Part shown: positions 3,354-62,018 of the stretch, one piece after another
How the letters are laid out: each line of letters begins with the position of its first letter
How positions within the stretch are numbered: position 1 is the first letter of the stretch
Virus record (IMG/VR): IMGVR_UViG_3300003965_000013
Coordinates: 3,540 to 67,539 of that record
Reading direction: 5' to 3' (one strand)
Length of the DNA stretch: 64,000 nucleotides
Source: a virus
Lineage: Duplodnaviria; Caudoviricetes
Position numbers and translations under genes: made by a program
The notes under the pieces: generated by a model
What the model was told of the DNA's origin: nothing
What the model saw: only the letters and a program-made list of their open reading frames with translations
Database searches by the model: none

Positions 3354-3779
3354 ATGCTGAAAGCTCAAATTATCGGCCACCTTGGTCAAGATGCAACTGT
3401 AAATAATGTAAATGGTAAACAGGTAATTAATTTTTCTGTGGCTCACTCCGAAACGTGGAAAGACACTACGGGCGAAAAGAAAAGTAAGACGGTATGGGTG
3501 AGTTGTTCTTATTGGACGGATAAAACCGGGTTGGTGCCTTACCTCACCAAAGGGACGCAGGTGTATGTGGAAGGAATGCCGGAAGCAAGGACGTATGCGA
3601 AGAATGATGGTACTACGGTGGCCCAACTGCAGTTGCGTGTTGGTACGGTGCAGTTACTTTCATCCGGAAATAATAATGCTGCAGGCAATGACGACTCAGA
3701 TAATACCCCCGAAAGGCAATACGAGCCCGTAACGCAGCAGCAGATGGGATCAGGTTATGTACAGAGGGACGGGTATTAG
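3354..3779 (+). CDS. ssb: Single-stranded DNA-binding protein (acidic DDLPF tail is out of frame)
   Basis: IIGHLGQD...VINFSVAHSE...GTQVYVEG OB fold; GEIVDDLPF* is encoded in the +1 frame at 3781-3810. Confidence 0.95.
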   Translation: MLKAQIIGHLGQDATVNNVNGKQVINFSVAHSETWKDTTGEKKSKTVWVSCSYWTDKTGLVPYLTKGTQVYVEGMPEARTYAKNDGTTVAQLQLRVGTVQLLSSGNNNAAGNDDSDNTPERQYEPVTQQQMGSGYVQRDGY

Positions 3780-3815
3780 TGGTGAGATTGTAGATGATTT
3801 GCCGTTTTAATGACT

Positions 3816-3950
3816 GCCTTACGAATCAGTATTGGCGAAGGCAGGGCAATAGCGAACCGTCAGCCGAAATAACAAACTAAAGTAAAATTATTATTCAAAA
3901 TGTTGAGATTAAGAACGTCCAGCCAAACTATTGCCAATGCAATGTTAGCT
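3816..3950 (+). repeat. attC/attI-like site A0 (degenerate left core GCCTTAC; right core GTTAGCT)
   Basis: Arms TATTGGCGAAGGCAGGGC / GTCCAGCCAAACTATTGCCAATG. Confidence 0.55.
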
Positions 3951-3958
3951 GCCGTTTT

Positions 3959-4246
3959 TTGTCAAGACGCAAACCGCAAAATAAAATGGCAAAACCAATT
4001 TGCGTTATCAAAGTAGATAACAAACTCGGAACATTTACCCCTATTTATCAAATCCAAAGTTTACTGGATGATAGACTTAATGATTACCATGTTTTAGTTG
4101 TCCCATTCGAGCAGCCTGCTGACGAATATCACGAACCAATGCAAGTGCAGGTTTTTCACGAAAAAGACTTTACGGAAATTCAATACGCTGAACTTAAAAA
4201 GATTATATCTGATGCAGTAGAGACTGTCGCACCGAATGGCAGCTAA
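3959..4246 (+). CDS. Hypothetical cassette protein (cassette 1)
   Basis: 95 aa (ATG at 3986 likely); stop codon in GGCAGCTAAC. Confidence 0.75.
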   Translation: MSRRKPQNKMAKPICVIKVDNKLGTFTPIYQIQSLLDDRLNDYHVLVVPFEQPADEYHEPMQVQVFHEKDFTEIQYAELKKIISDAVETVAPNGS

Positions 4247-4375
4247 CGTGCCGGGGCTTTGCGGTCGTTGCCGAATTAGAATTACTAAACTTAAAAATAA
4301 AACTACAGATGAAAAAAGAAACAGGCGTTGAGCCTTTAACCGAAAGCGGCAATGCCGCACAAGCCAGTGTTGGGC
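4241..4375 (+). repeat. attC-like site A1
   Basis: AGCTAAC...GGCTTTGCGGTCGTTGCCG / CGGCAATGCCGCACAAGCC...GTTGGGC. Confidence 0.85.
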
Positions 4376-4590
4376 GCAGTGCCCAGCCGTTGACGCCTCA
4401 AACGGCTAACACCACAAACAAACTTTGCAAGCTGACTAGGGATAATATGTCGAATGGTGGATTTTGGATACTTGCACAGGAGAAAACTATTGTCATTTCC
4501 CGGCATCAAGACGGAAGCTCGTTGGAGGCATCAATAGAAATTCCGAAGTCGGTTTTTGATGCTTTCGTTGAGTTTTATACTAAAGGTTGA
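4309..4590 (+). CDS. Hypothetical cassette protein (cassette 2); N-terminus encoded inside site A1
   Basis: 93 aa; ...AAQASVGRSA spans the GTT crossover. Confidence 0.75.
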   Translation: MKKETGVEPLTESGNAAQASVGRSAQPLTPQTANTTNKLCKLTRDNMSNGGFWILAQEKTIVISRHQDGSSLEASIEIPKSVFDAFVEFYTKG

Positions 4591-4600
4591 TGGGCATTGC

Positions 4601-4730
4601 GCCCAACGTTTGACGTATTGGCGATGTGCCTGAATTGAAAAACAAAAGTTTAATAAAGTAATGCAGTTGAATAGCGATAAACAGTTTGCGGTAGCACCAC
4701 AACAGGCATTTTGCCAATACGGTGTTAAGT
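4601..4730 (+). repeat. attC-like site A2
   Basis: GCCCAAC...CGTATTGGCGATGTGCCTG / CAGGCATTTTGCCAATACG...GTTAAGT. Confidence 0.85.
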
Positions 4731-4817
4731 GCAGTGCCGTAGATGGTTTATTCTATCGCTCAATAGAATTGCTGAAGAAAAGTTTTAAACAGCGGGGCGG
4801 CTGAAGTCACAGCCTCT

Positions 4818-5618
4818 TTGATACCTATGAGTTATGAACTGAAACATGGAGACTGCTTGGAATTGATGAAGGATATTCCTACTGGCAGTATTGATATGAT
4901 ACTTTGTGATTTACCTTATGGCACGACTTCAAATAAGTGGGATGCTGTGATACCGTTTGAACCGCTTTGGGGGCAATACAAGCGGATAATAAAACCGAAT
5001 GGCGTAATTGCATTAACGGCTTCACAACCGTTTTCTTCTGCCCTTGTAATGAGCAATCCGAAGATGTTCAAGCATGAATGGATTTGGATAAAGAACAGAG
5101 GCGGCAACTTCGCTAACACCGTTAGAGAGCCTTTTAAGGAGCATGAGCAGGTTTTGATATTTAGCAATGGTAAATGGACGTATAACCGCCAAATGCAGGA
5201 AAGAACAGGCGCAGGAGCAGACAGGGTGAAGTATGACCTGAACTGGCGAAGCCAATCGGAAAACTACCGTGAATTTGAAGGTAGAGAAGGGCAAAGAGTT
5301 GGAGAATTAAGAGTGCCTTCTTCGTGGCAGAAGTTCAATGTTGATGTAAGTAAACTGCACCCGACTATTAAACCTGTACCACTTTTTGAATACCTTATAA
5401 AGACGTACACAAATGAAGGTGAAACGGTGTTGGATAACTGCATGGGAAGCGGCACAACGGGAGTTGCTTGCCTGAATTTGAAGCGGAATTTTATCGGGAT
5501 AGAGAAGGAAGAAAAGTATTATGAGATAGCACAGAAACGACTTTCCGAATTGCTGACGAAGGAAGCAAAGGGAAGCGTGGGCGGCTGTTTAAAACTTTTC
5601 GATGATGAAGCTGCATAG
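4818..5618 (+). CDS. DNA methyltransferase, N4/N6 beta class (cassette 3)
   Basis: DLPY catalytic motif, HPTIKP, VLDNCMGSGTT SAM-binding motif; ATG at 4827 likely. Confidence 0.92.
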   Translation: MIPMSYELKHGDCLELMKDIPTGSIDMILCDLPYGTTSNKWDAVIPFEPLWGQYKRIIKPNGVIALTASQPFSSALVMSNPKMFKHEWIWIKNRGGNFANTVREPFKEHEQVLIFSNGKWTYNRQMQERTGAGADRVKYDLNWRSQSENYREFEGREGQRVGELRVPSSWQKFNVDVSKLHPTIKPVPLFEYLIKTYTNEGETVLDNCMGSGTTGVACLNLKRNFIGIEKEEKYYEIAQKRLSELLTKEAKGSVGGCLKLFDDEAA

Positions 5619-5638
5619 AGTTCCGAAAGTGGCATTGC

Positions 5639-5764
5639 ACTTAACGGGTTCGGGCTTGGCGAAGTGGCTGAACCCGAAGCTAAATAGAATTACTAAACTT
5701 TAAAATTAAAAACAAATGTCAAATAGAATTACTGAACAGCCATTTTGCCAAACCCGTGTTAGCG
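5639..5764 (+). repeat. attC-like site A3
   Basis: ACTTAAC...CGGGCTTGGCGAAGTGGCTG / CAGCCATTTTGCCAAACCCG...GTTAGCG. Confidence 0.85.
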
Positions 5765-6018
5765 GTAGTTTTATTGTAGAGAAAGGCAATATATCTTTCT
5801 GCGATGGACACGGAACAAGGTATTGGCGTTTTATGGCAAAAGGATTAAAGCGTAAGGTTGAACACTTTATAGAAACTTTTGACAATGATTTAAAGCATAA
5901 TGACAAATACCATTGTTACATTGATTATGGTGGATGTATTGGCTATCGGTCATTTGATACGAACAATTTTAAAGAAGCAGTAAGTTGGATGTTGAAGCGT
6001 CTGAAAAATTACCGCTAA
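5716..6018 (+). CDS. Hypothetical cassette protein (cassette 4)
   Basis: 100 aa; QPFCQTRVSGS leader lies inside A3; stop in CGCTAAC. Confidence 0.75.
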   Translation: MSNRITEQPFCQTRVSGSFIVEKGNISFCDGHGTRYWRFMAKGLKRKVEHFIETFDNDLKHNDKYHCYIDYGGCIGYRSFDTNNFKEAVSWMLKRLKNYR

Positions 6019-6101
6019 CGTTCTGCCAGCTTTATGCTGTGCGCTGAACATATTATTAACTCACGGCACTTGTCCGCATAGCATAAAACTGCTTGTTATG
6101 T
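6013..6101 (+). repeat. attC-like site A4
   Basis: CGCTAAC...AGCTTTATGCTGTGCG / CGCATAGCATAAAACT...GTTATGT. Confidence 0.85.
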
Positions 6102-6118
6102 GCCGTTAATTTTAGTCT

Positions 6119-6349
6119 ATGAAATTATTTAAATATGGTGTAAGTGTTTTTGATAGCCGTCAAAAAAAGTACGGTGGATTTAATCACTTCATAGCAGGGA
6201 AAATATTTAGGTGGCGATTGTGTTATTTAGACATTTACCTGAAAAGAAAATTCAAATTTGAAATAGTCCACAATGATGATAACAGTTATTATGACGGCTA
6301 TCATAATCACGTTTGGGTTGGTTGGGTGTTGGTGTCTTATGGCACATAA
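6119..6349 (+). CDS. Hypothetical cassette protein (cassette 5)
   Basis: 76 aa; stop in ACATAAC. Confidence 0.7.
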   Translation: MKLFKYGVSVFDSRQKKYGGFNHFIAGKIFRWRLCYLDIYLKRKFKFEIVHNDDNSYYDGYHNHVWVGWVLVSYGT

Positions 6350-6398
6350 CGGTTTCGGGCTTTGCGTTCGTTTTAATGCCGCCAAACCGCTGTTATAA
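6344..6398 (+). repeat. Short attC-like site A5 (55 bp)
   Basis: ACATAAC GGTTTCGGGC...GCCGCCAAACC GCT GTTATAA. Confidence 0.75.
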
Positions 6399-6468
6399 GC
6401 TGGCTGCGGTTAATTAAAACAAAATCTCAATACGAAGCAATAAACAAAAGAATTAAAAAAAAGAAGCG

Positions 6469-7209
6469 ATGGCAATAGAAATTAAAAACAAAGACTGCTT
6501 TGAGTTAATGGCAGAAATGCAAGATAAGAGCATAAACTTAATCTTTGCAGACCCGTGGTATTATCCCGAAAACCAAAAAACAAAAAACGCTTTTGAAGAT
6601 GATGTGTTTTGGGATATTACAAAAAAATGGATGAAGGAGTTTATTAGATTGATAAAGGATGATGGGCATATATTCATAAGTTTTTCAAGTCAAAAAATGG
6701 CAAAGTTTGAGTTTTTACTTGCCGAATTTGGTGTGCCATTAAAAAGCAGAATTGTTTGGCATTATAGAAATGCTGGTGGCAGATGTGCTGACAAGGGACA
6801 ATTTGGAAAAACTTATGAGATGATTTATCACATTGGTTTTGGGGATAGATTAAATTTCCCAGAAAAATGGGGTGATGAAAGATTTGATGTTTGGACTATT
6901 GCAATACCGCAAAGCAATTTCACAGATAAAAAGATACACCCATTTCAAAAGCCAATAGCACTACTTGAAAGGGTTGTTGGAATTGGCAGCAATGAAGGTG
7001 ATTTAGTTTTAGACCCATTTTCAGGTAGTGGGACAACTGCATTGGCTTGCAAAAAACTAAATAGAAATTTTATTGGAAGCGAATTGAATAAAGAACATTA
7101 TGAAAATAGCTTGGAACGTCTTAACCTAAACGGTTTTGAAAAAACCGAAGCGGGTGGGCTTTTTTTTAATTCTTTTCAAACGGAATTGTCAAACGAAGCA
7201 GGAACGTAG
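6469..7209 (+). CDS. DNA methyltransferase, N4/N6 beta class, DPWY variant (cassette 6)
   Basis: FADPWY (normally DPPY), HPFQKP, VLDPFSGSGTT. Confidence 0.9.
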   Translation: MAIEIKNKDCFELMAEMQDKSINLIFADPWYYPENQKTKNAFEDDVFWDITKKWMKEFIRLIKDDGHIFISFSSQKMAKFEFLLAEFGVPLKSRIVWHYRNAGGRCADKGQFGKTYEMIYHIGFGDRLNFPEKWGDERFDVWTIAIPQSNFTDKKIHPFQKPIALLERVVGIGSNEGDLVLDPFSGSGTTALACKKLNRNFIGSELNKEHYENSLERLNLNGFEKTEAGGLFFNSFQTELSNEAGT

Positions 7210-7217
7210 CAGCTTGC

Positions 7218-7351
7218 TTATAACGGTAAGGTGTTGCTGTCAGTGTGGGAATTGGCAGCACAAAAGTTAAATTAAAAAGCAAAAGATAACAATATGAACG
7301 AAAGTAAAATTGAAAACGGTCAGCCCACATTGCAGCAACACAATGTTAGGC
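7218..7351 (+). repeat. attC-like site A6
   Basis: TTATAAC...GTGTTGCTGTCAGTGTGGG / CCCACATTGCAGCAACAC...GTTAGGC. Confidence 0.85.
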
Positions 7352-7503
7352 GCAGTTTTGAGGAATGGTCTGCCGACCTTGCTAAATTAATGAAACAATA
7401 TCCACTTGTACATAATAAATGGAAAGTTTCAAGATTTAGGACAATGTACAACGACGGGTTGTCAGTTAAAGAAGCATTTAGATGTTGGTTTTGCGCTCAC
7501 TAA
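7294..7503 (+). CDS. Hypothetical cassette protein (cassette 7)
   Basis: 69 aa; QPTLQQHNVRRS leader lies inside A6. Confidence 0.7.
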   Translation: MNESKIENGQPTLQQHNVRRSFEEWSADLAKLMKQYPLVHNKWKVSRFRTMYNDGLSVKEAFRCWFCAH

Positions 7504-7507
7504 TTGC

Positions 7508-7674
7508 GCCTAACGGTCAAAAATTGCTGTTGTGCGCCCTGAGTTTGGAGGCACGACAAACGTAAAAGGGCAAGCAACAGCAGAGGCAGACGGCGCATAA
7601 TAGCAATTTCATGTTGGCCGCCGTACGGGTTTAGTGGGATGCTCTGCCGAATTTTTTGACCGTTGGACAGCCAT
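7508..7674 (+). repeat. attC-like site A7 with two alternative right ends (7613 and 7661)
   Basis: AATTGCTGTTGTGCGCC / GGCGCATAATAGCAATT; AACGGTCAAAAATT (7512-7525) inverted at 7650-7663. Confidence 0.75.
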
Positions 7675-7763
7675 AAGTAAAACAAAAGGAGTGATAACGG
7701 TTTGGGTTACGGCTTTCACCCCGTATGAAAAGAAATAATTTTTTAACTATTAAATTTTACAAA

Positions 7764-7970
7764 ATGAGTTATGAAGCTCCTGCAAAAGAATCAGTAGTAT
7801 TCTGGCAGACAAATGAAGAAAATGGAGTAGGTGAGCCTGCTTTGTTGATTGAATTTTACAATGATGTTATGCAGATTTCGCAAGACGGTGAACGGATTAA
7901 CATCAACTATGAATCTATAAAAGATTTGGTAAAGATTTTAAGAACTGCAAATGAAAGGAAACCGTCTTGA
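7764..7970 (+). CDS. Hypothetical cassette protein (cassette 8)
   Basis: ORF 7725..7970; ATG at 7764 after an A-rich leader. Confidence 0.7.
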   Translation: MSYEAPAKESVVFWQTNEENGVGEPALLIEFYNDVMQISQDGERININYESIKDLVKILRTANERKPS

Positions 7971-8003
7971 TATTTCTTTGAATTACGGGGTGAAAGTATG
8001 GCG

Positions 8004-8140
8004 GTCCAACGGTCGGGTATTTCTGATGTGCCTGTAATCAAGGCTTGTCAGCCCGGTAGAAAATTATTCTAAAGATGAACAAGGAACAAATGTACATAGC
8101 GGATTCGTCAGCAGGCATAGCAGAAATACCTATGTTATCT
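8004..8140 (+). repeat. attC-like site A8
   Basis: GTCCAAC...GGGTATTTCTGATGTGCCTG / CAGGCATAGCAGAAATACCT...GTTATCT. Confidence 0.85.
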
Positions 8141-8767
8141 GCTGCCTTTGTCGGTCGTGTACTTGTTGCCTGTGAGTATTCAGGTCGTGTCAGAGATGCT
8201 TTTACTGCCAAAGGATGGGATGCTATTAGTTGCGATTTATTACCATCAAGAACGACAGGCAAACACTACCAGGGAAATGTTTTTGATATTATAAACGATG
8301 GCTTTGATTTATTGATAGGCTTTCCACCTTGTACTTTTATTACAAACGTTAATACAAAATGGCGTGGCGATATTGAAAGATTAAAGAAAGCATGTGATGG
8401 CATGAAGTTCTTTGCTGATTTATATTCTGCACCTATAAAAATGATTTGCCTGGAAAATCCAGTAGGCATGTTAAGTAATTGTTTTCGTAAGCCTGACCAA
8501 ATTATTACACCTGTTCAATTTGGCGGCTGTGAGCAAAAGAATACGTGCCTTTGGTTGAAGGGGTTGCCAAAATTAGTGCATACAAAAACGGATAATTTAT
8601 TCGAGAAAAGAACACACGGCGTTTTATCGGAAGAATTTACCAGCAATAAATCACACCGGCAAAGCCATTGGTATAACAATAATAAAAGTGAACGGTCAAC
8701 AACATTTCAATCTGTCGCAAATGCAATGGCTGAACAATGGACGGCTTTTGTCTTAGGTAGCAGATAA
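8075..8767 (+). CDS. Short phage DNA cytosine-C5 methyltransferase-like protein (cassette 9)
   Basis: VLVACEYSG, GFPPCT (catalytic PC), LENPVG; stop in AGATAAC. Confidence 0.8.
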   Translation: MNKEQMYIADSSAGIAEIPMLSAAFVGRVLVACEYSGRVRDAFTAKGWDAISCDLLPSRTTGKHYQGNVFDIINDGFDLLIGFPPCTFITNVNTKWRGDIERLKKACDGMKFFADLYSAPIKMICLENPVGMLSNCFRKPDQIITPVQFGGCEQKNTCLWLKGLPKLVHTKTDNLFEKRTHGVLSEEFTSNKSHRQSHWYNNNKSERSTTFQSVANAMAEQWTAFVLGSR

Positions 8768-8786
8768 CACAAGGATTTGCGTAACA

Positions 8787-8993
8787 ATGAATATTAAACT
8801 AATTGATAAACAAAGTAATAACTACAGGCTGCTCATTAATGAAATTGAGTGCTTATTTATACCAATGGAATTATTTACAACCGGGTTGCTGCCGGTTAAG
8901 AAATGCCTCAACAATAATTCACTTGGGTGGTATGTAAACAGAAAATTTGTGAGTTACAATCAAATTAAAAAAGCAATAAAAAACTTTAAGTAA
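8787..8993 (+). CDS. Hypothetical protein
   Basis: 68 aa, AT-rich. Confidence 0.6.
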   Translation: MNIKLIDKQSNNYRLLINEIECLFIPMELFTTGLLPVKKCLNNNSLGWYVNRKFVSYNQIKKAIKNFK

Positions 8994-28877: not shown

Positions 28878-30929
28878 ATGTTTAAACCCATTCATAACGG
28901 TAAGTGTGTAACGGTGTACGGCTTAAAATGCTGGATACCTCCTGTGGGGTTTGGCTATCACTCCGACCCGGACCAGGCACGGATGATTGAGGCTAAAACA
29001 GGGCTGGCGCAACCACTGCTGGAACGGGTGGATGTGATTAAGCGAAGCACAAAAAAAGAAGAACAGTATTGGGAGCGACCTGATATACCTGCTGAGGTAA
29101 ACGAATGGTTTGAAGAAGAACGGGATCGGCAATTAACAGAACCCGAATGGCAGCACCCGGAACTGGCAAAGATTTCTCAACGGGAATGGCACAGAAGAAG
29201 ATACGGTGTGTGGTTTTATAACAACGGTGTGCCTGAGTATATAACAGGGCCCAACTACTATTTTCTTACCTACTGGGCCATGAACAGCGATACGGGCTAT
29301 CCTGACTTTCGGAAGATTGACCAGGAGTATTTTTATTTCTGGGCGTATTGTTATGAGGATCCAAAATGCTACGGGATGAATGACATTGAGAAGCGCCGGA
29401 ATGGTAAAACCGAGAAGGCCGCATGTATAGCTGTAGAGATTATTACCCGTACTGCAAAATCCCATGCCTACATACAAAGCAAAACCGAAGCGGATGCAAA
29501 TGACTTGTTTGACTTAAAACTGATTCCTGCTTTTCGTGCCATGCCTCCGTACTTTAAGCCAGAGTATGACCGGGCGAAAGGTGACGTGCCCAAGGGAAAT
29601 ATTCGGTTCTTCAAAACCAGTAAGAAGGGTAAGATTGACCCTAAACTGCAGAAGGTGCCTGAATTACAATCCAGCATCAACGCCAAGGAAAGCGGAGCGA
29701 AGGCTATTGATGGTTTGAGAAGTAAAATATACATAGGCGATGAAAGTGGTAAGACAAAGGTGGATATGCTGGACAGGCATAAGGTAGTGCAGCGCTGTTG
29801 TAAAAACCAGAAAGGTGAGATTATTGGTAAAATGATTATTACCACTACGGTTGAGGAGGTAGGTTTTAAATACAAGTTTGACAAGCTGTGGGCACAAAGC
29901 AACCAGTTTGAAAGACAAAAAGACGGCAGCACTAAAAGCGGACTTTACAAATTGTTTACGCCTGCACACCGTAGTATGGATTATGACATTTACGGCTATC
30001 CGAAAGAACAGGAAGCCATTGATGCTATTAATGCGGAAAGGGAAAAGTTTAAGGATAGTGTGGAGGAATTAAATGATGTGATACGCAAAGAACCCATGAC
30101 GGAGGAAGAAGCGTTTTTTGTGGATGCCAAGCAGTGCCATTTCAACCCCAACAGTTTGAATTTTAGATTGAGCGATTTGAGCCTGCTCAAAAACTACAAA
30201 GAGCGTGGCAATTTTTCATGGGCTAATGGGGAGCGTGATACGAAGGTGATATGGACACCCGACCCTACGGGCAGGTGGGAGATATGCTGGCTGTTTGATA
30301 AACCCGGGCAGAGCAATAAAGTAGAACGCAGGGGCAACCGATATATGCCGCTGAACGGTTTGCGATTTATTACAGGCTGCGACCCCTTTGACCATGACCA
30401 AGTAGAAGATACTAACCAACGAAGCAAGGGTTGTGCGTTTACATTAAAGCGCCACGATCCCAATGCGGAGAACGACCCTTATAACAAAGCCTTCATCTGC
30501 AAATACCTGTACCGGCACGAACTGGCGTACAGTTTTTATGAAGATATGATTATGCAGTGCTTCTACTTTGGAAGCCCACTGTTGTTTGAAAATAACAAAG
30601 GAGGTATTGCACGGTATTTTGAATTGAGAGGGTACAAAGATTTCTTGATTCATTACAGCGACCGTAAAGAAGCCGGTATTCCTGCCAGCACTGAGAACAA
30701 AGTGATGATGCTGGAAATTATGCAAGAGTTTTTTAAAGAACATATTGACAAACAATTTTTCCCTGATCTAATACAAGACCTGTTGAAGTTTGAAATAGCC
30801 AACACGCAAAAGTACGATTTGAGTATGGCAGCGGGGTGGACACTGTTTGCTGACCATTACAATGTAGCAGCCAAAGGAAGCACAGGATTAAAAGACGTAA
30901 CAAAATTATTCAGGCGGTATGCCGCATAA
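28878..30929 (+). CDS. terL: Terminase large subunit
   Basis: KRRNGKT Walker A, IGDESGK Walker B, TGCDPFD nuclease motif, YDLSMAAG. Confidence 0.93.
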   Translation: MFKPIHNGKCVTVYGLKCWIPPVGFGYHSDPDQARMIEAKTGLAQPLLERVDVIKRSTKKEEQYWERPDIPAEVNEWFEEERDRQLTEPEWQHPELAKISQREWHRRRYGVWFYNNGVPEYITGPNYYFLTYWAMNSDTGYPDFRKIDQEYFYFWAYCYEDPKCYGMNDIEKRRNGKTEKAACIAVEIITRTAKSHAYIQSKTEADANDLFDLKLIPAFRAMPPYFKPEYDRAKGDVPKGNIRFFKTSKKGKIDPKLQKVPELQSSINAKESGAKAIDGLRSKIYIGDESGKTKVDMLDRHKVVQRCCKNQKGEIIGKMIITTTVEEVGFKYKFDKLWAQSNQFERQKDGSTKSGLYKLFTPAHRSMDYDIYGYPKEQEAIDAINAEREKFKDSVEELNDVIRKEPMTEEEAFFVDAKQCHFNPNSLNFRLSDLSLLKNYKERGNFSWANGERDTKVIWTPDPTGRWEICWLFDKPGQSNKVERRGNRYMPLNGLRFITGCDPFDHDQVEDTNQRSKGCAFTLKRHDPNAENDPYNKAFICKYLYRHELAYSFYEDMIMQCFYFGSPLLFENNKGGIARYFELRGYKDFLIHYSDRKEAGIPASTENKVMMLEIMQEFFKEHIDKQFFPDLIQDLLKFEIANTQKYDLSMAAGWTLFADHYNVAAKGSTGLKDVTKLFRRYAA

Positions 30930-30940
30930 AACAATAAACC

Positions 30941-33217
30941 ATGACCTCATCATCATTTCCGAAGCACAATATTAACCCTGCAGAAAAGGGTAAGGATTGG
31001 TGCTTGCAATTTGCAAAAGCGGCGTACCACAGTTATGAAACCTCTGTAGGCAGAAAAATGTTTATGGGCAAGGCCCGTGTGTATGACGAAATAAAACAGT
31101 ATATGTACGGCAGGCAGGACACCCGCAGGTATCACAAAGCCGTGGGTGTGGATGAAGAAACCAATACTACGTATGCTAATATTGATAACCGGGTACTGGC
31201 AATTGTTTCCAAACAACGCAGAACGGCGCTGGGCCTGCTGCAGAAAAGTTTATACAACATTGTAGCCACTACCATTGATACGCAGGCAAGGAATGAGGTG
31301 GATGAGTATTATGCACAGGTAAAAGCAAAACTGCTTTTAAAGAGAGCGCTGGAAGAACAGGCCCCCGAACTGGCAAACCATCCTTCTTTGATGCTGGATG
31401 CCAAAGACCCGCAGGATTTGGAGGAATTGGAAATGCAGGCAGAGTATGGTTTTAAACACCAAATGGCAATTGAGGCCGAGGATGCGGTGAATTTATCTTT
31501 TGCCTGGAATGATATTGCAAGATGCAGGGATATGGTGTTTGAAAAGCTGTTTGATGAGGGCGTGGCGGTGTATAAGGATTGGCTGGATAAGAATGGCAAA
31601 CCAAAATTCAGAGTGTGTGATAACCGGAACATTGTGTGCAACTACTGCAACTATGCTGACTTTAGTGATTTGCTGTACATAGGAGAAGTGGTTGAAAAGC
31701 CTTTTCATGCGTTTACCGAAGATGCGGGTAATGCGTTTACCGAGGCAGAGTATGAACGTATTTATGAAAGCGCCAAGGCTACGTTTGGCAATGTAAACAT
31801 GCCCGCCTATCAACAGAACGGATATGACAAATGCAAGGTGCAGGTATTGGAATTGCAGTGGTACAGTGTGGATGATTATTTTTTTGAAAGCCGGGTAACG
31901 GCGGCGGGTAATTTGATTTATGTACCCGTGAAGTACAGTGATCGTAAATACAACAGCAGGAATTATGACTACCGCCCCGTAACGATGGTGTACAAAGCGA
32001 AGTGGATTGTGGGTACTGATTTTATTTATGACTTTGGAAAGATGCCCAACCCTAAGCGTAACCCCAACAAAACCGGTATTGCCAAGCTGGATTACCATAT
32101 TGAAGTCATCAACTTTGACCGGATGGAGTGCAAGGGTATTGGAGAGGATTTAATGACCATTGCTGACCAGATACATCTTGCATGGTTGAAGTGGCAAAAT
32201 ATACAGAACTCCCTTATTCCTTACATGATTGAAATTGATTTGGATGCTTTGGAAAATGTAGCGCTGGGGGCAGGTGGTGAAAAGCTGACGGCAAAAGAAG
32301 TGCTGGATATGGCATTTCAAAACGGGATATTGATAACGAGAAGGCAGGGTATAAGTGAACGGAACATCAACTACCAAGCTGTAAACTTTATACAAACCAA
32401 TTACGGCGAAGCGGTGGCCGAAGCGTGGAATAATTTGGTGCGGGTGATAGGTATGGTGAACGAGATTATTGGGCTGAACGAGTTAACGGACAGCAGCACT
32501 CCCAACCCGAAGATATTGACCAACCCGGCAATGATGGCTGTGGAGGGAACCAAGAATGCGCTTTACAATATTGTGGCGGCTGAAAAACGGCTGTTATTGA
32601 AAGTGGCAAATGCGATGGTAAAGCGGATGCAGCAGGCAGTAAAGAAAGGAAAGGTGGAAGGTTATTTACCGGCGCTGGGTGAGGGTACGATGAAGTTTAT
32701 ACAACTGAGCCCGGATTTGGATTTGCACGAGTTTGGAATTTTTCTTGAAGATAAACTGACCGATGAAAAGCGGCAGCTATTTGTGCAGGAAGTGTTTAAC
32801 TATAAGAGCCAAGGGTTGATTGACCCTACCGATGCGATATTGGTAGAGAATGAACCTAACCTAAAACGTGCTGCACAAATGCTGGCATACCGTATTGATA
32901 AGCGTAAGAAGCAGATGCAAAAAGAAGCCATGCAGCAGCAGCAAATGAACGGGCAGATACAGATACAGAGCGCACAAGCTGCAGAACAGTTTAAGCAGGA
33001 AACACTTCAATTGGAATACCAGTTAAAAGCCGAGTTGCTGAAAATGGAAATTGATGGCAAGCTGATGCTGAAACAACTGGAAGTAGAAGGCAAAGTAAGC
33101 GTAACCGATAAAGAGCAAACCACCAAAGAACGGATTAAAGACAAAGAATTGGGACTACCGCCTGCCCCGCAGCAACAGATACAAATTGAGCCTGTAACGG
33201 AAGATGAAGAAATGTAA
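30941..33217 (+). CDS. Portal protein (crAss-like)
   Basis: 758 aa directly after TerL; Gln-rich coiled-coil C-terminal barrel. Confidence 0.85.
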   Translation: MTSSSFPKHNINPAEKGKDWCLQFAKAAYHSYETSVGRKMFMGKARVYDEIKQYMYGRQDTRRYHKAVGVDEETNTTYANIDNRVLAIVSKQRRTALGLLQKSLYNIVATTIDTQARNEVDEYYAQVKAKLLLKRALEEQAPELANHPSLMLDAKDPQDLEELEMQAEYGFKHQMAIEAEDAVNLSFAWNDIARCRDMVFEKLFDEGVAVYKDWLDKNGKPKFRVCDNRNIVCNYCNYADFSDLLYIGEVVEKPFHAFTEDAGNAFTEAEYERIYESAKATFGNVNMPAYQQNGYDKCKVQVLELQWYSVDDYFFESRVTAAGNLIYVPVKYSDRKYNSRNYDYRPVTMVYKAKWIVGTDFIYDFGKMPNPKRNPNKTGIAKLDYHIEVINFDRMECKGIGEDLMTIADQIHLAWLKWQNIQNSLIPYMIEIDLDALENVALGAGGEKLTAKEVLDMAFQNGILITRRQGISERNINYQAVNFIQTNYGEAVAEAWNNLVRVIGMVNEIIGLNELTDSSTPNPKILTNPAMMAVEGTKNALYNIVAAEKRLLLKVANAMVKRMQQAVKKGKVEGYLPALGEGTMKFIQLSPDLDLHEFGIFLEDKLTDEKRQLFVQEVFNYKSQGLIDPTDAILVENEPNLKRAAQMLAYRIDKRKKQMQKEAMQQQQMNGQIQIQSAQAAEQFKQETLQLEYQLKAELLKMEIDGKLMLKQLEVEGKVSVTDKEQTTKERIKDKELGLPPAPQQQIQIEPVTEDEEM

Positions 33218-48263: not shown

Positions 48264-48283
48264 AACATCGCAGCCGCACCCTA

Positions 48284-48377
48284 TGGTAACAAGGCATTTG
48301 CGTCATTGCCCTTTGAGGTGTCTGCTAAAATTGAGGTGTCTGCGTGGGCAACGAACGCAAATACCCAACCGTTAGTG
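48284..48377 (-). repeat. attC-like site B1
   Basis: (- strand) CACTAAC GGTTGGGTATTTGCGTTCGTTGCCC / GGGCAATGACGCAAATGCC TT GTTACCA. Confidence 0.75.
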
Positions 48378-48478
48378 GTAATGGGCAGACAATCATCCAT
48401 GAACTGCATAACGATTGTATTTATTTTTTTGCCCACGCCACACATTAGTTTCCAATTCAACATTTTATTAATCATTCA

Positions 48479-48985
48479 TCAAAATCTTATATTTTCTATC
48501 CCGCTAACAAGAATATGCCAGTAAAATTGAGCCCAGGTAAAATACTTCGGTGTCTTATCCGCTGCTGAATTAAAATAACCATAAACTCCTTCATGAGATG
48601 GTAATATCCTTTTTGTTATGTGCATCCACGGCTCTTTCGTGCTGTATAGTATATTATAAATTTGAACGGGGCTTTTATCGAACATTATCTGCTTAATTTC
48701 ATTAGCAGAAAAGGCTTCAAAAACAACTGTCTTATTCTCCACATATTTACCAAATGTATTTTTTATAGATGCAAAAAACATGGTAGCTCTTGCATCATCT
48801 TCTGTTCCTTCATATTTATTATCATAAATTTCAGGATAATTGATTACAGACTTTATAAGTTCACTCTTAAAAACTTCGGTAAATGAAGGTGAACATTCTG
48901 GACAATCAGTTTCGTAGCCGCCGCCAACAGTGGGCATTGATACGAATATCTTTTTAGTCCCGTTGCAAGTAGTACAATCTGACAT
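48479..48985 (-). CDS. Hypothetical protein with N-terminal Zn ribbon
   Basis: CTTCNG...CPEC. Confidence 0.7.
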   Translation of the reverse strand: MSDCTTCNGTKKIFVSMPTVGGGYETDCPECSPSFTEVFKSELIKSVINYPEIYDNKYEGTEDDARATMFFASIKNTFGKYVENKTVVFEAFSANEIKQIMFDKSPVQIYNILYSTKEPWMHITKRILPSHEGVYGYFNSAADKTPKYFTWAQFYWHILVSGIENIRF

Positions 48986-49093
48986 TGTTTATATTTTTTG
49001 ATGAATAAAATGTTTATTGCGTCAGTCGGGCTTCAGTTCCCTGATTAAGCGTTCGGTTTTCCAAATTCCCGCCCGAACGCAAAACCCTGAACG

Positions 49094-49348
49094 TTAGCGG
49101 CTATGTATAGACACAATCATAACCGTGTCACCAACAATGTATTTATTAGCACTATCTTTTAACCACCACGAGTTTTTCCCTGTAACTGAAATCATTTGGT
49201 ATTGATAAATGCCTTTACCATAAGGCTGTACATTTTTAACATAAAATCTTCCATCAGAAGGCATCAGCTCGCCGCAAGATGAAAACACAGCCACTAACAA
49301 TAAAATTGCCACAAGTACGGCTGACGAATGTAAATTGAACTTTTGCAT
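49094..49348 (-). CDS. Putative lipoprotein (cassette-borne)
   Basis: LLVAVFSS-C; stop in CGCTAAC. Confidence 0.65.
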   Translation of the reverse strand: MQKFNLHSSAVLVAILLLVAVFSSCGELMPSDGRFYVKNVQPYGKGIYQYQMISVTGKNSWWLKDSANKYIVGDTVMIVSIHSR

Positions 49349-49367
49349 AGATTTATTTTTTCAGGTT

Positions 49368-49547
49368 TTACAGATACTCATTAACTATTTGTTTAGCTGC
49401 CCATATTAGGTAAATAACAAACAAAAATGATATTACACCAATTGTTTCTTGAGAGTAGTATCTTGCCGCTAAATACAGAAGGTATCCAGCTAAAATAAAA
49501 GCCGCCGCTATCACCACGCTTAAAAGCCATTTGAGTATGTGTTTCAT
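49368..49547 (-). CDS. 59-aa two-TM membrane protein (below the ORF-track cut-off)
   Basis: Manual translation MKHILKWLLSVVIAAAFILAGYLL...WAAKQIVNEYL. Confidence 0.6.
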   Translation of the reverse strand: MKHILKWLLSVVIAAAFILAGYLLYLAARYYSQETIGVISFLFVIYLIWAAKQIVNEYL

Positions 49548-49548
49548 T

Positions 49549-49752
49549 CTATTTGATTTCTTGAAGCAAAGAATTAATAACTACATCTATTTGTTTTTTA
49601 TGACCTAAATTACTTTCTAAGATAGACTTAAAAAACATCTTGTAAACATCATCAGTTAAAATGTTATTTTTGTTTACATATGGATAACCAAATTCTTGCA
49701 GGTTCTTAACTCCGTTATTAATTAATTTATCTCTTAATTCTTGATTGTTCAT
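49549..49752 (-). CDS. Hypothetical protein
   Basis: 67 aa, coupled to neighbours. Confidence 0.7.
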   Translation of the reverse strand: MNNQELRDKLINNGVKNLQEFGYPYVNKNNILTDDVYKMFFKSILESNLGHKKQIDVVINSLLQEIK

Positions 49753-50559
49753 GACTTCTTCGTTTTATATTGTTCAAGTTTCTCCGCTGCAAAACGGCGG
49801 AACAAGAGCCTCGTCTGTGCCGACTGTTCCTTAAAGTGTTTAACTGCATTTTCGTAATATATTTTGTTTATCTCTATTCCAGTAAATGAAAACTTTTCTT
49901 CCAACGCTGCAATGGCACTATTTCCACTACCTAAATGCGTGTCAAGTATCGTTTGTCCTTCTGTTGCAAATTTGCTTAAAATCCACCGATAAAGCTGTTT
50001 TGGCTTTTGTGTAGGGTGTATTTTCGTTTCTGCACTTGTGTTGCCTTGTAGCCCCCCATAATATCTATAATCAAAACAAAGTGCGGGTTTTTTAAATGAA
50101 GTCCACGCCAATTCACCATCAGCAAAATTTGCAACAGGATTCTGCTTATACCAAAATATAAAGCATTGTGTAGGTGGTAGCGGAAAATAGTTGCCCCCCC
50201 CAAACAATTTGATTTTTGCTTACTCTAAAAAGCTGCTCCCAGTATTCATCTTGTGGCGTTTCTTTATCCCAATCTGCATTGTGATATTTATTCGCTTTAT
50301 AGCGGTTTCCGTTGCTATCCTTGTTTGTTCTATTAAACGCCCCAAAGTTTAACCCATACGGGGGGTCTACTATTGCCAAATCAAATTGTTTGTCCTCAAA
50401 TGTTTTCATTACCTCCACACAGTCGGCATTAATAAACCGAATAGAAGGGCAGCTGCTAACATCGGCTATAACCAATGGCGGCTGTGTGCTAATTTGTAAG
50501 TTTGTATCTTCGTTCATTCTGTACCATATTTTGAAAGTTTTGTACTCGTAATCCGCCAC
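49749..50559 (-). pseudogene. N4/N6 DNA methyltransferase frameshifted at a G8 tract (or phase-variable)
   Basis: ORF 50146..50559 has DPPY; ORF 49749..50207 has HPTQKP and LDTHLGSG; removing one G at 50194-50201 restores QIVWGGNYF. Confidence 0.85.
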
Positions 50560-50584
50560 TGGTCATAGCCGCAAAACGTTAGCT
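50454..50584 (-). repeat. attC-like site B2
   Basis: (- strand) AGCTAAC...GCGGCTATGACCAGTGGCGG / CCGCCATTGGTTATAGCCG...GTTAGCA. Confidence 0.85.
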
Positions 50585-50585
50585 G

Positions 50586-50906
50586 CTACCTTTCGGACAC
50601 AGCATAATAATTCGACAAGTGATTTTCTACAATACGTAAACACTGTTTTTTCTCACCAAAAGAAAGTTTTTCAGAAACAAAATATGACATCTCGCCATCG
50701 GTTAAATTTTCTGCTAAGTAGTCGTATTCATCATCTGTAATTCTGTAAACTTCTTTTATTGCGTTATCAAACAAATCAAGCATACCACCGCTTGACTTTA
50801 TTTTTAAATCTTCGTATGGTCGAAACTTTCTTTTACATCGACTGACAAAGGCAGCAGCTAACATGGCATTGGTTCCATGTGGGCTGACGTTCAAATTTTT
50901 ATCCAT
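50586..50906 (-). CDS. Hypothetical cassette protein
   Basis: 106 aa; leader ...GTNAMLAAA spans the GTT crossover. Confidence 0.75.
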   Translation of the reverse strand: MDKNLNVSPHGTNAMLAAAFVSRCKRKFRPYEDLKIKSSGGMLDLFDNAIKEVYRITDDEYDYLAENLTDGEMSYFVSEKLSFGEKKQCLRIVENHLSNYYAVSER

Positions 50907-50986
50907 AGTAATTCAATTTTGCTTTAGTAATTTATTCGGCTAACGTGCAAGAAATCCCACACGGCAGCAATACCTGAACGTTCTTT
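50856..50986 (-). repeat. attC-like site B3
   Basis: (- strand) AAAGAAC...GGTATTGCTGCCGTGTGGG / CCCACATGGAACCAATGCC...GTTAGCT. Confidence 0.75.
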
Positions 50987-51006
50987 GCAATGCCGCTGAC
51001 GGTTCA

Positions 51007-51234
51007 TTATTCAGCGACATCATTTGTATTTGTTTTTTGCCCACGCTTCTTACCCAGCTTATGTTTTTCAATCAGCTTTTGTAGTGCTTTATTTATCTTC
51101 ATCTTTTCTTCATCTGTAAAATCTGTTGGGTTGTTTCTACTATTGAAACCACGTATCTTGAACTTGTGGCTTTTTATCTCTGGCAGAAATTCAGCAAAGA
51201 ATGGATCGGCTTTTATATAATCAAACAACTTCAT
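51007..51234 (-). CDS. Hypothetical protein
   Basis: 75 aa. Confidence 0.7.
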   Translation of the reverse strand: MKLFDYIKADPFFAEFLPEIKSHKFKIRGFNSRNNPTDFTDEEKMKINKALQKLIEKHKLGKKRGQKTNTNDVAE

Positions 51235-51491
51235 TTGAATATAAATTCAGGCAAATCAATTTTTTCAACAGGAAAATCTTTGTAAGCATCAATATAATGT
51301 TTACTACATCCAGCAGAATATAAATCTATCATAACACCAATTTTTAATCTTTCTCTCATACTTTCAGTGAAATCTTCTGGCAGCAAATCAGTGTATGTTT
51401 TTATGAATTTATCAACTGTTTTTTTGCTGAAAGAGACCCTGCCGCTTTTTGTCTCATAACCATATTCAGCGCAAAATTGTTCGGCATTCAT
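51231..51491 (-). CDS. Hypothetical protein
   Basis: 86 aa. Confidence 0.7.
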   Translation of the reverse strand: MNAEQFCAEYGYETKSGRVSFSKKTVDKFIKTYTDLLPEDFTESMRERLKIGVMIDLYSAGCSKHYIDAYKDFPVEKIDLPEFIFK

Positions 51492-51790
51492 AGTTGCATT
51501 CCTTTAAATTTTAAAGGAACTTTATATCCAACCTCACATTCATTACTATCTGAAAAATATTCAGGCAGCTTACCGTCTTTAACATAAGCCCAAAGCCTGT
51601 GAGTTAAGCCTTCATCGTCATTGCCTTCATTTCTTACAAGGCATAAACGCTGGTTATCTTCAAGCGTTGGGACTTCTTCAATGGTATCATAGAAACTGCT
51701 ATCTTCTATATCCCCAAATTCGTCAATAGTCTCAACTGACCATTCATAAAATACTTTGTTTGGCATAATATTTATCGTTTGTTTACACAA
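51488..51790 (-). CDS. Hypothetical protein
   Basis: 100 aa; upstream TATCTTTG -7 element on the minus strand. Confidence 0.7.
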   Translation of the reverse strand: MCKQTINIMPNKVFYEWSVETIDEFGDIEDSSFYDTIEEVPTLEDNQRLCLVRNEGNDDEGLTHRLWAYVKDGKLPEYFSDSNECEVGYKVPLKFKGMQL

Positions 51791-51967
51791 AGATACGGAA
51801 ACTTTTTGGTTTCACCAAATTTATTTTTAAGAGAGATGCTCCGCAGCTTCAAAAAACAAATACAAACCCAGCTTTATATCAGTAAAACTCATATCTCTAA
51901 TCATCTTTTAGTTCTTAATCCGGTCTGGCGAATCACAGAATATCTGCACTTCGCCAAGCCCTGTTCG

Positions 51968-52315
51968 TTATGCCCCATTGCTGGCTGCATAAACGCTATT
52001 CAGCTTTAGAACGACTTCGTGACTAGGCTTTTTAATCTTTCCTCTTTCTAATTGCGATAAGTAAGCATTAGATATTCCAGTCAACTTCTCAACGTCACGA
52101 AGTGTCATACCTGCCTTTGCCCGCATCAACTTGAAATCCCGCAACGATGGCATAACATTGCATTGCCGCAATTTGGCTTCATACCATCGCACAGCGTGAA
52201 TAAAGCTCACCCTTGCAACGTCCTGCTCTTCTTTAGTATTCCAAGCGGCTGCATAGCTACGAGCCACAGTAAGTAATTCTTCATCAGTAATATTCATAAG
52301 ACTTTTTATTTTCAA
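51968..52315 (-). CDS. XRE-family HTH protein; the HTH half is a cassette
   Basis: MTLRDVEKLTGISNAYLSQLERGK. Confidence 0.85.
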   Translation of the reverse strand: MKIKSLMNITDEELLTVARSYAAAWNTKEEQDVARVSFIHAVRWYEAKLRQCNVMPSLRDFKLMRAKAGMTLRDVEKLTGISNAYLSQLERGKIKKPSHEVVLKLNSVYAASNGA

Positions 52316-52393
52316 GTGCCAAACTACAGCAATGCTTCAACGTAAGGCAAAATTTGCCACTACACAGCCCTTTCTGCACACGGGGCATCGCTG

Positions 52394-62017: not shown

Positions 62018-62018
62018 T

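Follow-up and report, generated by a model that had tools for sequence, protein, structure and literature searches.

An array of hairpin-bounded units in a phage genome

In the 64-kb stretch of phage DNA analyzed here (the window), each of nine consecutive units at 3944-8768 opens with a sequence that is the reverse complement of its end. This arrangement raises the question of whether the locus is an integron-like cassette array and, if so, which enzyme might move its genes. The preliminary description proposed a phage-borne, CALIN-like array served in trans by a host enzyme. Four lines of evidence support this reading, in which the enzyme would act in trans: covariation within the sites, indels that follow cassette boundaries, a sharply bounded match to unit 4, and arrays of the same sites headed by a recombinase gene. 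We consider it probable that the DNA comes from a temperate phage residing in a Chitinophagaceae chromosome and that its region 3808-8768 (Table 1) holds nine cassettes arranged as an integron-like array. Our literature search found no paper describing this cassette system.

Table 1. Features of the window. R1 is a covariance model of the hairpin site; positions are window coordinates.
Feature	Position	Strand	Hairpin	Unit	ORF or product	R1 score and remarks
ssb gene	3354-3779	+			PF00436, E 1.3e-18	Upstream flank of array
Site 0	3808-3957	+	3823-3943			41.3 bits, E 3e-6; array's distal end; read from the sequence as degenerate R″ (TTAC, 3819-3822), hairpin, and R′ of unit 1
Cassette 1	3822-4246	+	3823-3943	3944-4247	3986-4246, 86 aa, no family	TAA stop within TAAC
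Cassette 2	4247-4606	+	4248-4368	4369-4607	4309-4590, starts inside hairpin loop; alternative start 4447	94 bits at 4234-4382; end pairing 17 bp
Cassette 3	4607-5644	+	4608-4723	4724-5645	4827-5618, N6/N4 DNA methyltransferase (PF01555, E 7e-32; phrog_67)	95.7 bits
Cassette 4	5645-6018	+	5646-5757	5758-6019	5716-6018, 100 aa	105 bits on + strand, 15 bits on - strand
Cassette 5	6019-6349	+	6020-6094	6095-6350	6119-6349, 76 aa	52.9 bits
Cassette 6	6350-7223	+	6351-6391 (short)	6392-7224	6469-7209, N6/N4 DNA methyltransferase (PF01555, E 4e-40)	52.7 bits
Cassette 7	7224-7513	+	7225-7344	7345-7514	7294-7503, 69 aa	109.3 bits
Cassette 8	7514-8009	+	7515-7611	7612-8010	7725-7970, 81 aa	49.6 bits at 7501-7626; second R′ copy at 7662
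Cassette 9	8010-8767	+	8011-8133	8134-8768	8075-8767, DNA methyltransferase (phrog_757, E 3e-50)	41.2 bits
Second array, same site family	48277-52394	-				Opposite strand, downstream of dnaB
Large serine recombinase	62471-64000	+			PF00239, PF07508	Runs off window

The term CALIN is used for clusters of two or more attC sites that are not accompanied by an integron integrase. Nine sites lie at 3808-8147, and nowhere in its 64 kb does the window encode a tyrosine recombinase; the array would therefore qualify provided that its sites count as attC-type. Likewise, the mumin and filifjonk phages, whose genomes are complete, encode no tyrosine recombinase. The earlier statement that no integrase is in view is correct for tyrosine recombinases, but it overlooked the large serine recombinase gene, whose product is probably the prophage integrase rather than a component of the cassette system.

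Within the array, start codons often lie in hairpin loops, TAA stops lie within TAAC, and the ORFs point the opposite way from those of classical cassettes. The spacers measure 41-147 nt, as opposed to the 55-137 nt originally given. The array terminates at AAC|ACAAGG without a trailing hairpin, and no attI-like flank is recognizable at this end (8768). Three orphan DNA methyltransferases are among the cargo, which fits a role as shuffled anti-restriction genes. Cassette 3 additionally contains a nested 16-bp inverted repeat (4779-4794/5589-5604), and the core at the end of cassette 6, GTTATAAGCTGGCTGC, is also present in L063, L071, L075, and L080.

The second array yields four R1 matches, each of them on the - strand (50849-50993, 50447-50591, 49003-49106, and 48277-48384), as well as a start/end pair at 50862/50578. 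Given its location after dnaB, and because Muminvirus arrays do not follow ssb, the location after ssb emphasized previously is not a general property.

Cassette starts are complementary to their own ends

All nine complementary pairs quoted in the preliminary description are present in the sequence. Between 3780 and 8800, nine pairs have nine exact bases and eight pairs have ten exact bases counted from GTT. A control set beforehand, consisting of 300 dinucleotide-preserving shuffles of this region, gave means of 1.23 and 0.39 and maxima of 5 and 3, respectively. Pairing in the window units reaches 12-17 bp, and at position 11 a start G lies opposite an end T (a + strand G.T pair) in eight of nine pairs, as had been observed. 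The exception is unit 8 as first delimited: Its start was given as 7661, the GTT is actually at 7662, and the R′ assigned by the covariance model is at 7612 (GTTGGCCGCCGTA; site 7501-7626), leaving 7662 as a second near-copy.

The same complementarity occurs in 299 units of other loci, and sixty locus strands carry at least two such units in array. Among 134 sites from many phages, complementarity at variable positions is 0.44 with the neighboring unit, 0.47 under random pairing, and ~0.96 for own ends, the latter value being partly forced by the selection of pairs. Thus, an end indeed fits its own start better than that of its neighbor. In integrons, this complementarity is a sign of a circular intermediate, and it is found in nine of nine window units.

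The sites share a strand-specific fold

The custom covariance model suggested earlier was built (R1), and the nine window sites were scored on both strands. All nine hairpins fit this single model on the + strand only, with scores of 41-109 bits compared to a best - strand score of 15 bits. When 75 diverse sites are aligned, they conform to one 20-pair fold, in which 16 of the 20 pairs exhibit compensatory double changes (18-39 sequences each). AAC and GTT are invariant, and strand-specific G.T pairs are kept in 74/75 and 68/75 sequences. On the basis of this modeled fold, the sites appear to be of the attC type, with an imperfect inverted repeat (R″-L″...L′-R′), AAC/GTT boundaries, and single-strand folding.

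DNA folding is more stable on the + strand for six of seven sites, with modest single-site z-scores of -1 to -3.6. The consensus includes bulges and an asymmetric internal loop, and conserved extrahelical bases are not definable in it; the conserved G.T pairs may take their place in strand choice. Sites range from 70 to 210 nt, and hairpins are strongly conserved across unrelated contigs, reaching 100% over 109 nt. A search against Rfam returned only a weak and unrelated match (WsnRNA46, 33 bits vs 65).

Whole modules are gained and lost in related phages

Related phages were searched for altered cassette content, as had been proposed. The filifjonk, mumin, and tooticki phages have flanks that are >99% identical, and among these phages plus L057/L058 there are five indel or replacement events. 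Every event adds or removes whole modules composed of a hairpin and a unit, and all ten breakpoints fall at TAAC^G, immediately 5′ to a hairpin. These five natural events agree with crossover within AAC/GTT and whole-cassette gain and loss, as in integrons. Breakpoint resolution is 3-9 nt, and every breakpoint lies within a direct repeat of 5-9 nt (TAACGTT), such that slippage or microhomology-mediated deletion is compatible with the sequence alone.

Because the breaks occur at the 5′ side, the hairpin belongs with the unit downstream of it, and not with the upstream unit as first described. Judging from these alignments, the predicted crossover maps to AA|C when read along the coding strand, whereas the G|TT crossover named previously holds for the other strand only. 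The insertion end of the array is its 3′ end (8768).

Unit 4 recurs in another phage, L043, at 91.5% identity exactly over 5759-6018 (TT to AA), with unrelated flanks. Homologs of unit 9 in L025 and L039 have 44% amino acid identity and carry a different yet self-complementary core. Variation among relatives concerns presence or absence rather than orientation, and no inverted copies of units were found among homologous cassettes in other contigs.

A Xer-like recombinase heads chromosomal arrays of the same sites

No recombinase gene adjoins either window array, but such genes are present at array starts in the host chromosome, in its relatives, and in one phage contig. The host carries two copies (390 aa and 383 aa, both with PF13495 and PF00589), each followed by its own array with sites on the opposite strand. 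An attI-like flank is conserved in four copies on the host chromosome, beside the Xer-like enzyme. In other genomes, 64 covariance-model matches occur in 51 loci around recombinase homologs. For close homologs, all matches are downstream of the recombinase gene on the opposite strand and none is upstream; L173 and L187 have 12 and 11 sites downstream of the homolog, respectively. The same layout is seen in seven of nine loci from other genera. These chromosomal arrays run in the order recombinase, ORF, site, ORF, site, with the folding strand antisense to the cassette ORFs, and site orientation tracks the recombinase gene, not the ORFs.

Of 151 genomes sampled from the host's order, 113 contain the sites, which also occur in many phage contigs. 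One 169-kb phage contig has an array of ~32 kb (from at least 82.9 to ~115.6 kb), whose last AAC is ~20 nt before a gene for a 298-aa recombinase that is 41% identical to the host enzyme.

The preliminary description anticipated an IntI-like host enzyme. No host protein exceeds the TIGR02249 cut-off for integron integrases: The best scores are 167-174 bits versus 265, in two-piece matches that skip model positions 180-239. The closest solved relative of the recombinase is XerA (5hxy), and its IntI4 match is confined to the C-terminus. Housekeeping XerC/D-like genes are separate from the array recombinases. The enzyme for these cassettes is therefore likely a Xer-like tyrosine recombinase without the IntI insertion, rather than IntI, and consequently the system does not strictly belong among the integrons. 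In integrons, the IntI insertion contacts extrahelical bases, and its absence here is a point against the explanation that we favor below.

Comparison with known systems

The arrays resemble integrons, notably sedentary chromosomal ones whose attC sites are homogeneous, like the Vibrio VCRs, in having mostly single-gene cassettes and imperfect-hairpin sites that are bounded by AAC and GTT and fold preferentially on one strand. Crossover inside AAC/GTT, cassette starts complementary to their own ends, homogeneous sites with diverse cargo including defense-related genes, and an array abutting a tyrosine recombinase gene are additional likenesses. In contrast, the R box here spans 12-17 bp, in which G8, C9, and a position 11 G.T pair are fixed; invariant G.T pairs exist instead of, or besides, extrahelical bases; and the loops are long, A/T-rich, and conserved. 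Furthermore, the recombinase is Xer-like, the chromosomal recombinase gene is co-oriented with the cassettes, and in phages the strand that folds also carries the ORFs, each downstream of its site.

PeSL cassettes of T4-type phages combine early promoters with stem-loops and are thought to use homologous recombination. They similarly shuffle small accessory genes as stem-loop-bounded modules in a hyperplastic early region, but are not known to have an AAC/GTT core, own-end complementarity, or a linked recombinase. Acinetobacter plasmid dif modules depend on Xer proteins, and dif/pdif sites are 28-bp double-stranded elements with a 6-bp spacer. Shared features with Xer (XerA, XerC/D) and dif modules include XerA as nearest solved relative, gene modules between inverted sites, and GCNCATAA-like R-box arms. 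However, the present sites are folded structures of 70-210 nt in which a hairpin separates the two arms and the G.T pairs are specific to one strand. We rejected a dif module (two 11-bp arms and a 6-bp spacer) as a description of these hairpin sites.

Phage CALINs have been reported, including one with methyltransferase cassettes in Polaribacter phage P12002L; these have two to four sites, were found with attC models, and were tested with IntI1, which recombines the attC predicted in the Polaribacter phage (Qi et al. 2023, PMC9892861). They share with our array the integrase-less clusters of attC-type sites, orphan DNA methyltransferase cargo, and in one case a Bacteroidota host. They differ in that the array here has nine sites of a distinct family with its own recombinase family, and a pair scan of P12002L yielded just two units of the window-type pattern.

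Alternative explanations

One alternative is that the hairpins are passive hot spots, serving as patches of homology or microhomology for general recombination or slippage with no dedicated recombinase. Such hot spots would resemble lambdoid phage boundary sequences or T4-type PeSL cassettes. The lack of a phage tyrosine recombinase and the confinement of breakpoints to TAACGTT agree with this proposal, and hairpin conservation of the extent noted above would favor homologous exchange. However, no breakpoint is located in the longer hairpin body or at TGTTA, compensatory change maintains own-end complementarity, and strand-specific G.T pairs play no part in double-strand homology. Given also the fixed side and strand of sites relative to the recombinase gene in dozens of genomes, we regard passive hot spots as unlikely. 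Alternatively, the hairpins and long-range end pairing might act in mRNA, influencing processing, stability, or translation initiation, with modularity being secondary. Phage sites do fold on the coding strand, with conservation of G.U-type pairs, and have start and stop codons embedded in them. This is very improbable as the main function, because the folding strand is antisense to ORFs in chromosomal arrays, orientation follows the recombinase gene, and cassette-wise indels are left unexplained. Nevertheless, the hairpins may have an additional RNA role in phages.

An ordinary CALIN, with canonical attC sites and a true IntI from some host, would account for the identical R″/R′ AAC/GTT geometry, the several cores that conform to GTTRRRY, and the recombination of a Polaribacter phage attC by IntI1 (Qi et al. 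2023, PMC9892861). The subthreshold TIGR02249 matches in the host and the Xer-like enzyme that heads the arrays make this highly doubtful, as does the report of only one complete integron in Bacteroidetes by IntegronFinder 2.0. Finally, inverted repeats of 10-17 bp flank every unit and could be targets of site-specific inversion for phase variation. This is scarcely credible given the absence of inverted copies among homologous cassettes in other contigs and the presence/absence pattern of variation; moreover, the repeats form the outermost arms of a folded site that is larger.

Proposed mechanism and implications

We propose that every cassette opens with a folding site, made up of C, an imperfect hairpin (41-121 nt), and GTTA, after which comes cargo ending in TAA. 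In the folded + (coding) strand, the R box (TAAC/GTTA) would be lengthened by the conserved G8 and C9 and by the position 11 G.T pair. An invariant G.T pair would adjoin it, followed by an asymmetric internal loop and a two-part stem with more conserved G.T pairs and an A/T-rich loop, where the start codon is often located. A Xer-like tyrosine recombinase, supplied by the host from its two gene copies rather than by the phage, would cut and exchange this single strand at AA|C and thereby act on the prophage in trans. Whole hairpin-plus-unit modules would be excised, presumably as circles whose R box is completed by pairing between the two ends of the unit, and would be inserted at the 3′ (AAC) end of the array.

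Phage and host thus seem to have in common an integron-like means of shuffling genes, operated by an enzyme that is not an integron integrase. On balance, we lean toward a second, IntI-independent integron lineage common to Bacteroidota and their phages, with a distinct folded site and a Xer-like recombinase encoded by host or phage. Standard integron finders would miss such a lineage because both enzyme and site differ from the canonical ones. If this reading is true, hosts would stock accessory and defense genes (e.g., TerY-P), and phages would stock counter-defense methyltransferases. The opponents in this arms race would then depend on a single recombination system, and perhaps on a single pool of cassettes.

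Unit Ends and Folded Sites

All nine start and end pairs quoted in the preliminary description of the array (3944-8768) are present in the sequence, and eight of them comprise ten exactly complementary bases counted from GTT. The pairing runs on to 12-17 bp. A G.T pair at position 11 (start G opposite end T), which becomes a C.A mismatch on the other strand, occurs in eight of the nine pairs, the exception being unit 8 as originally placed. In 300 dinucleotide shuffles of 3780-8800, a mean of 1.23 pairs reached 9 bases and 0.39 reached 10, compared to nine and eight pairs in the actual sequence. Each start had also been said to prefer its own end, and indeed the ends of neighboring units show 0.44 pairing at variable positions, against 0.47 for random ends. 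Within the array, an R box can nevertheless form through the conserved positions (1-4, 8, 9, and 11). The feature is real.

Two measurements were revised. The imperfect hairpins between units span 41-147 nt rather than 55-137, and the GTT of unit 8 sits at 7662. According to the covariance model, the true outer arm R' of the unit 8 site is at 7612 and 7662 is a near-duplicate; site 7 proper measures 97 nt (7515-7611). These near-copies of R' in cassette 8 lie 50 nt apart; AATTTTTTGACC, at the end of the segment separating them, pairs with GGTCAAAAATT (7515-7525). Separately, a perfect 16-bp inverted repeat (4779-4794 / 5589-5604), bounded by GTT...AAC, is nested in cassette 3 around the methyltransferase ORF and possibly represents an additional closing helix or what is left of an inner cassette.

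Genome-wide scans by a simple complementarity filter were swamped by chance pairs, and site searches used nhmmer half-site profiles and a covariance model instead. From 134 distinct sites, the consensus of the outer arms is G-T-T-A-N-N-N-G-C-N-G-T for R' and A-T-N-G-C-N-N-N-T-A-A-C for R'', with a G directly after R'' in 100% of sites and a T before GTT in 98%. An alignment of 75 diverse sites (A1) supports a fold of 20 pairs, with compensatory double changes at 16 of them (18-39 sequences per pair); G.T pairs are conserved at columns 15/153 (74 of 75 sequences) and 36/136 (68 of 75). The covariance model built from A1 (R1), a check proposed in the preliminary description, matches all nine array sites on the + strand with 41-109 bits, against a best reverse-strand score of 15 bits, and DNA folding is more stable for the + strand in six of seven sites. 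Thus, covariation, strand scores, and DNA folding show directly that the sites are folded and strand biased.

The A/T-rich loops of the sites carry about three copies of a ACAAAnGTTnAA-like motif, ~21 nt apart and conserved across phages (e.g., window 4640-4700; A1 columns 50-115), which could be a binding site for an accessory protein or an expression signal. An Rfam search found no attC-like family. A weak, full-length match to the Wolbachia sRNA WsnRNA46 (33 bits; gathering score, 65) at 7213-7358 spans exactly one site and could reflect chance or a distant structural likeness.

Gain and Loss of Whole Cassettes at One Core

Closely related phages (Muminvirus) differ by whole cassettes. The Flavobacterium phages filifjonk and mumin6-1 differ in a three-cassette block and one terminal cassette, mumin6-3 lacks one 506-bp cassette, and tooticki has a different terminal cassette, encoding a C5 methyltransferase. 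Likewise, locus L058 corresponds to L057 plus two cassettes. Ten of ten breakpoints among related phages fall in one core, TAAC^G(TT), 5' to the hairpin, and each phage indel event gains or loses whole modules of hairpin plus unit. These breakpoints and whole-module events argue that the hairpin goes with the unit downstream, which departs from the earlier view of the cassettes. An ownership count from recurring cassettes (54 cases conserved upstream but not downstream, 0 the reverse) was biased by the choice of loci, and too few informative pairs were left once this bias was removed. Therefore, on the evidence of five indel events, we assign each hairpin to the unit 3' of it. Because the hairpin belongs to the downstream unit, start codons in hairpin loops are part of the same cassette as the ORF they begin.

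By the same comparisons, the crossover is placed at AA|C on the coding strand, and new cassettes are found beside the unique flank, where the array ends in AAC. On the opposite strand, this arrangement corresponds exactly to that of a classical integron: attI, then G|TT, cassette, and attC. The + strand of the window is then equivalent to the bottom strand of classical sites, in agreement with its better folding. The phage ORFs, by contrast, have the reverse orientation to those of classical integron cassettes.

Unit 4 recurs in contig L043 with 91.5% identity, exactly from TT (5759) to AA (6018), between unrelated flanks. Unit 9 has distant homologues (44% amino-acid identity) enclosed by a core that differs in sequence, is again self-complementary, and keeps the same position-11 G/A. 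Both observations lend support to the proposed mobility.

A Xer-Like Candidate Recombinase

The array was said to have no integrase in view. Neither the window nor the complete genomes of mumin and filifjonk contain a PF00589 domain, but a large serine recombinase is present at the right edge of the window. The host, a member of the Chitinophagaceae, encodes two XerC/D-sized proteins plus two paralogues of 390 aa (recombinase 2; G000 3094415-3095587) and 383 aa (recombinase 1) that are 63% identical to each other and carry PF13495 and PF00589. Their best NCBIfam model is XerA/integron integrase, slightly under the cut-off, and their nearest solved structure is XerA. The integron-integrase model matches them in two pieces and skips positions 180-239, where the IntI-specific domain lies. 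The proposal of a host IntI-like enzyme acting in trans therefore needs modification: host recombinases head arrays of the same sites, but IntI is absent from the host.

Next to recombinase 2 lies a conserved attI-like segment, then a one-gene cassette and hairpin on the opposite strand. At least five sites lie behind recombinase 1 (271-285 kb), oriented like the hairpin behind recombinase 2. Three more copies of the attI-like segment occur elsewhere in the host genome, each bordering a small array on its AAC side. The segments are ~110-140 bp long with GGCGACAT/ATGTCGCC repeats, and just one of the four is beside a recombinase gene.

Across 51 loci around recombinase homologues, R1 gave 64 matches. 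For close homologues, all sites lie downstream and on the strand opposite to the gene (12 in L173, 11 in L187, and 6 in L160), with none in the 10 kb upstream. These loci read recombinase, ORF, site, ORF, site; the ORFs here are antisense to the strand that folds, and seven of nine loci from other genera share this layout. Many contigs stop just past the recombinase gene, which would be expected of assemblies broken by repeats. In four more distant homologues the layout is of the phage type: the sites directly precede the gene and share its strand. In the 169-kb viral contig IMGVR_UViG_3300043411_001575 (region ~82.9-116.6 kb covered by L084, L075, L053, and L210), an array extends from at least 82.9 to ~115.6 kb (~32 kb), and its last AAC lies ~20 nt before a gene for a 298-aa Xer-like recombinase 41% identical to the host enzyme. 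Among 151 genomes, 76 have recombinase and sites, 11 recombinase alone, 37 sites alone, and 27 neither, a positive co-occurrence that carries little weight given that the E-value cut admits other Xer-type proteins and the genomes are related.

Together, there is strong circumstantial evidence that the Xer-like enzyme is the cognate recombinase of the sites, and it presumably catalyzes their recombination. The array works like an integron but, judged by its integrase, falls outside that class. We consider the mechanism of cassette exchange at these folded sites to be probable.

Exchange driven by homology or microhomology would account for the fact that every breakpoint lies within a 5-9 nt repeat, but it leaves the strand-specific G.T pairs, the covariation of own ends, and the linkage to a recombinase unexplained, and we regard it as unlikely. 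A canonical CALIN (attC cluster without integrase) served by IntI agrees poorly with a host that has no such enzyme and is very improbable. Equally hard to credit is a purely RNA role for the hairpins, given that in chromosomal arrays the ORFs run antisense to the strand that folds. Inversion of units deserves almost no credence, as no inverted copies were seen among the comparison loci and related phages. Readings as an inverton, a Xer/dif module, or an IS200/IS605-type element were set aside on anatomy.

Distribution and Genomic Setting

Arrays of at least two units that are complementary to their own ends and bear the position-11 G/A signature were found on 60 locus strands, and the cultured phages mumin and filifjonk are among the carriers. 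R1 detects such sites in 113 of the 151 genomes sampled from the order. The 3' arm of hairpin 3 encodes the first 15-21 codons of the unit 4 ORF, and these codons match more than 100 viral contigs. Hairpin 3 (5653-5761) is 100% identical over 109 nt to positions 3938-4046 of L108, an unrelated metagenomic viral contig. It is also >90% identical to dozens more sites, and the similarity ends at TAAC and GTTA. Site sequences are homogenized across phages, much like VCRs in Vibrio. Polaribacter phage P12002L, in which just two units of the pattern were found, is a poor comparator.

The window is the minus strand of host positions 3309390-3373389 in a 3.98-Mb chromosome assembled as a single contig, and its terminase, portal, virion, repressor-like, and recombinase genes identify it as a prophage. 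The genes at its right edge are probably a lysogeny module; this module runs off the window, so the prophage reaches past it. No close relatives of the prophage turned up when 60 related genomes were searched at the DNA level; the only matches were short and lay in the hairpins. A gene for a RepL-like replication protein (PF05732; 9016-9447) lies directly downstream of the array. The window also holds a second array of the same site family, in which the unit running from 50862 to 50578 carries the same end signature as the main-array units.

Coordinates of features in the window and in the host genome (G000; C1, chromosome)
Feature	Position	Strand	Remark
Large terminase	28878-30929
Portal	30941-33217
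Second array	48277-52394	-	downstream of dnaB
R1 matches, second array	50849-50993, 50447-50591, 49003-49106, 48277-48384	-
DnaB-like helicase	52394-53770	-
S24 peptidase (repressor-like) gene and large serine recombinase	61337-64000		right edge; recombinase runs off window
attI-like segment, four copies	G000:C1:3095560-3095700, 1821588-1821694, 1995358-1995496, 3425087-3425192
TerY / PP2C phosphatase / Ser-Thr kinase triad	G000:C1:266929-270952 (L209 929-4952)		first genes behind recombinase 1

Cassettes 3, 6, and 9 encode DNA methyltransferases, and the remaining six encode small proteins without a family. In the host, the TerY triad is the TerY-P anti-phage system in PADLOC, with the next site at 270971. 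Units farther behind recombinase 1 encode ABC exporters and T9SS-sorted trypsin-like peptidases.

Significance

Integrons are considered almost absent from Bacteroidota and rare in phages. Full-text literature searches turned up no account of the present site family or of its recombinase, although one may exist. Integrons and CALINs in phages are already known (Qi et al. 2023, PMC9892861), and IntegronFinder 2.0 reports only one complete integron in Bacteroidetes. Muminvirus isolates differ in methyltransferases, and these differences track plating efficiency, in a report that does not mention hairpins or cassettes (Nilsson et al. 2020, PMC7077304).

The present sites form a family with integron logic that is common in one order and in many phage contigs and is tied to a recombinase without the hallmark domain of IntI. 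Their covariance model offers a practical marker for accessory-gene hot spots in Bacteroidota phages. If the mechanism is correct, it would widen the known range of single-strand, structure-specific cassette recombination, and the transition from Xer to IntI would become testable through a natural intermediate. It would also explain the methyltransferase swaps that alter plating efficiency among closely related phages (Nilsson et al. 2020, PMC7077304), and would tie phage counter-defence and host defence cargo such as TerY-P to one shuffling machine.
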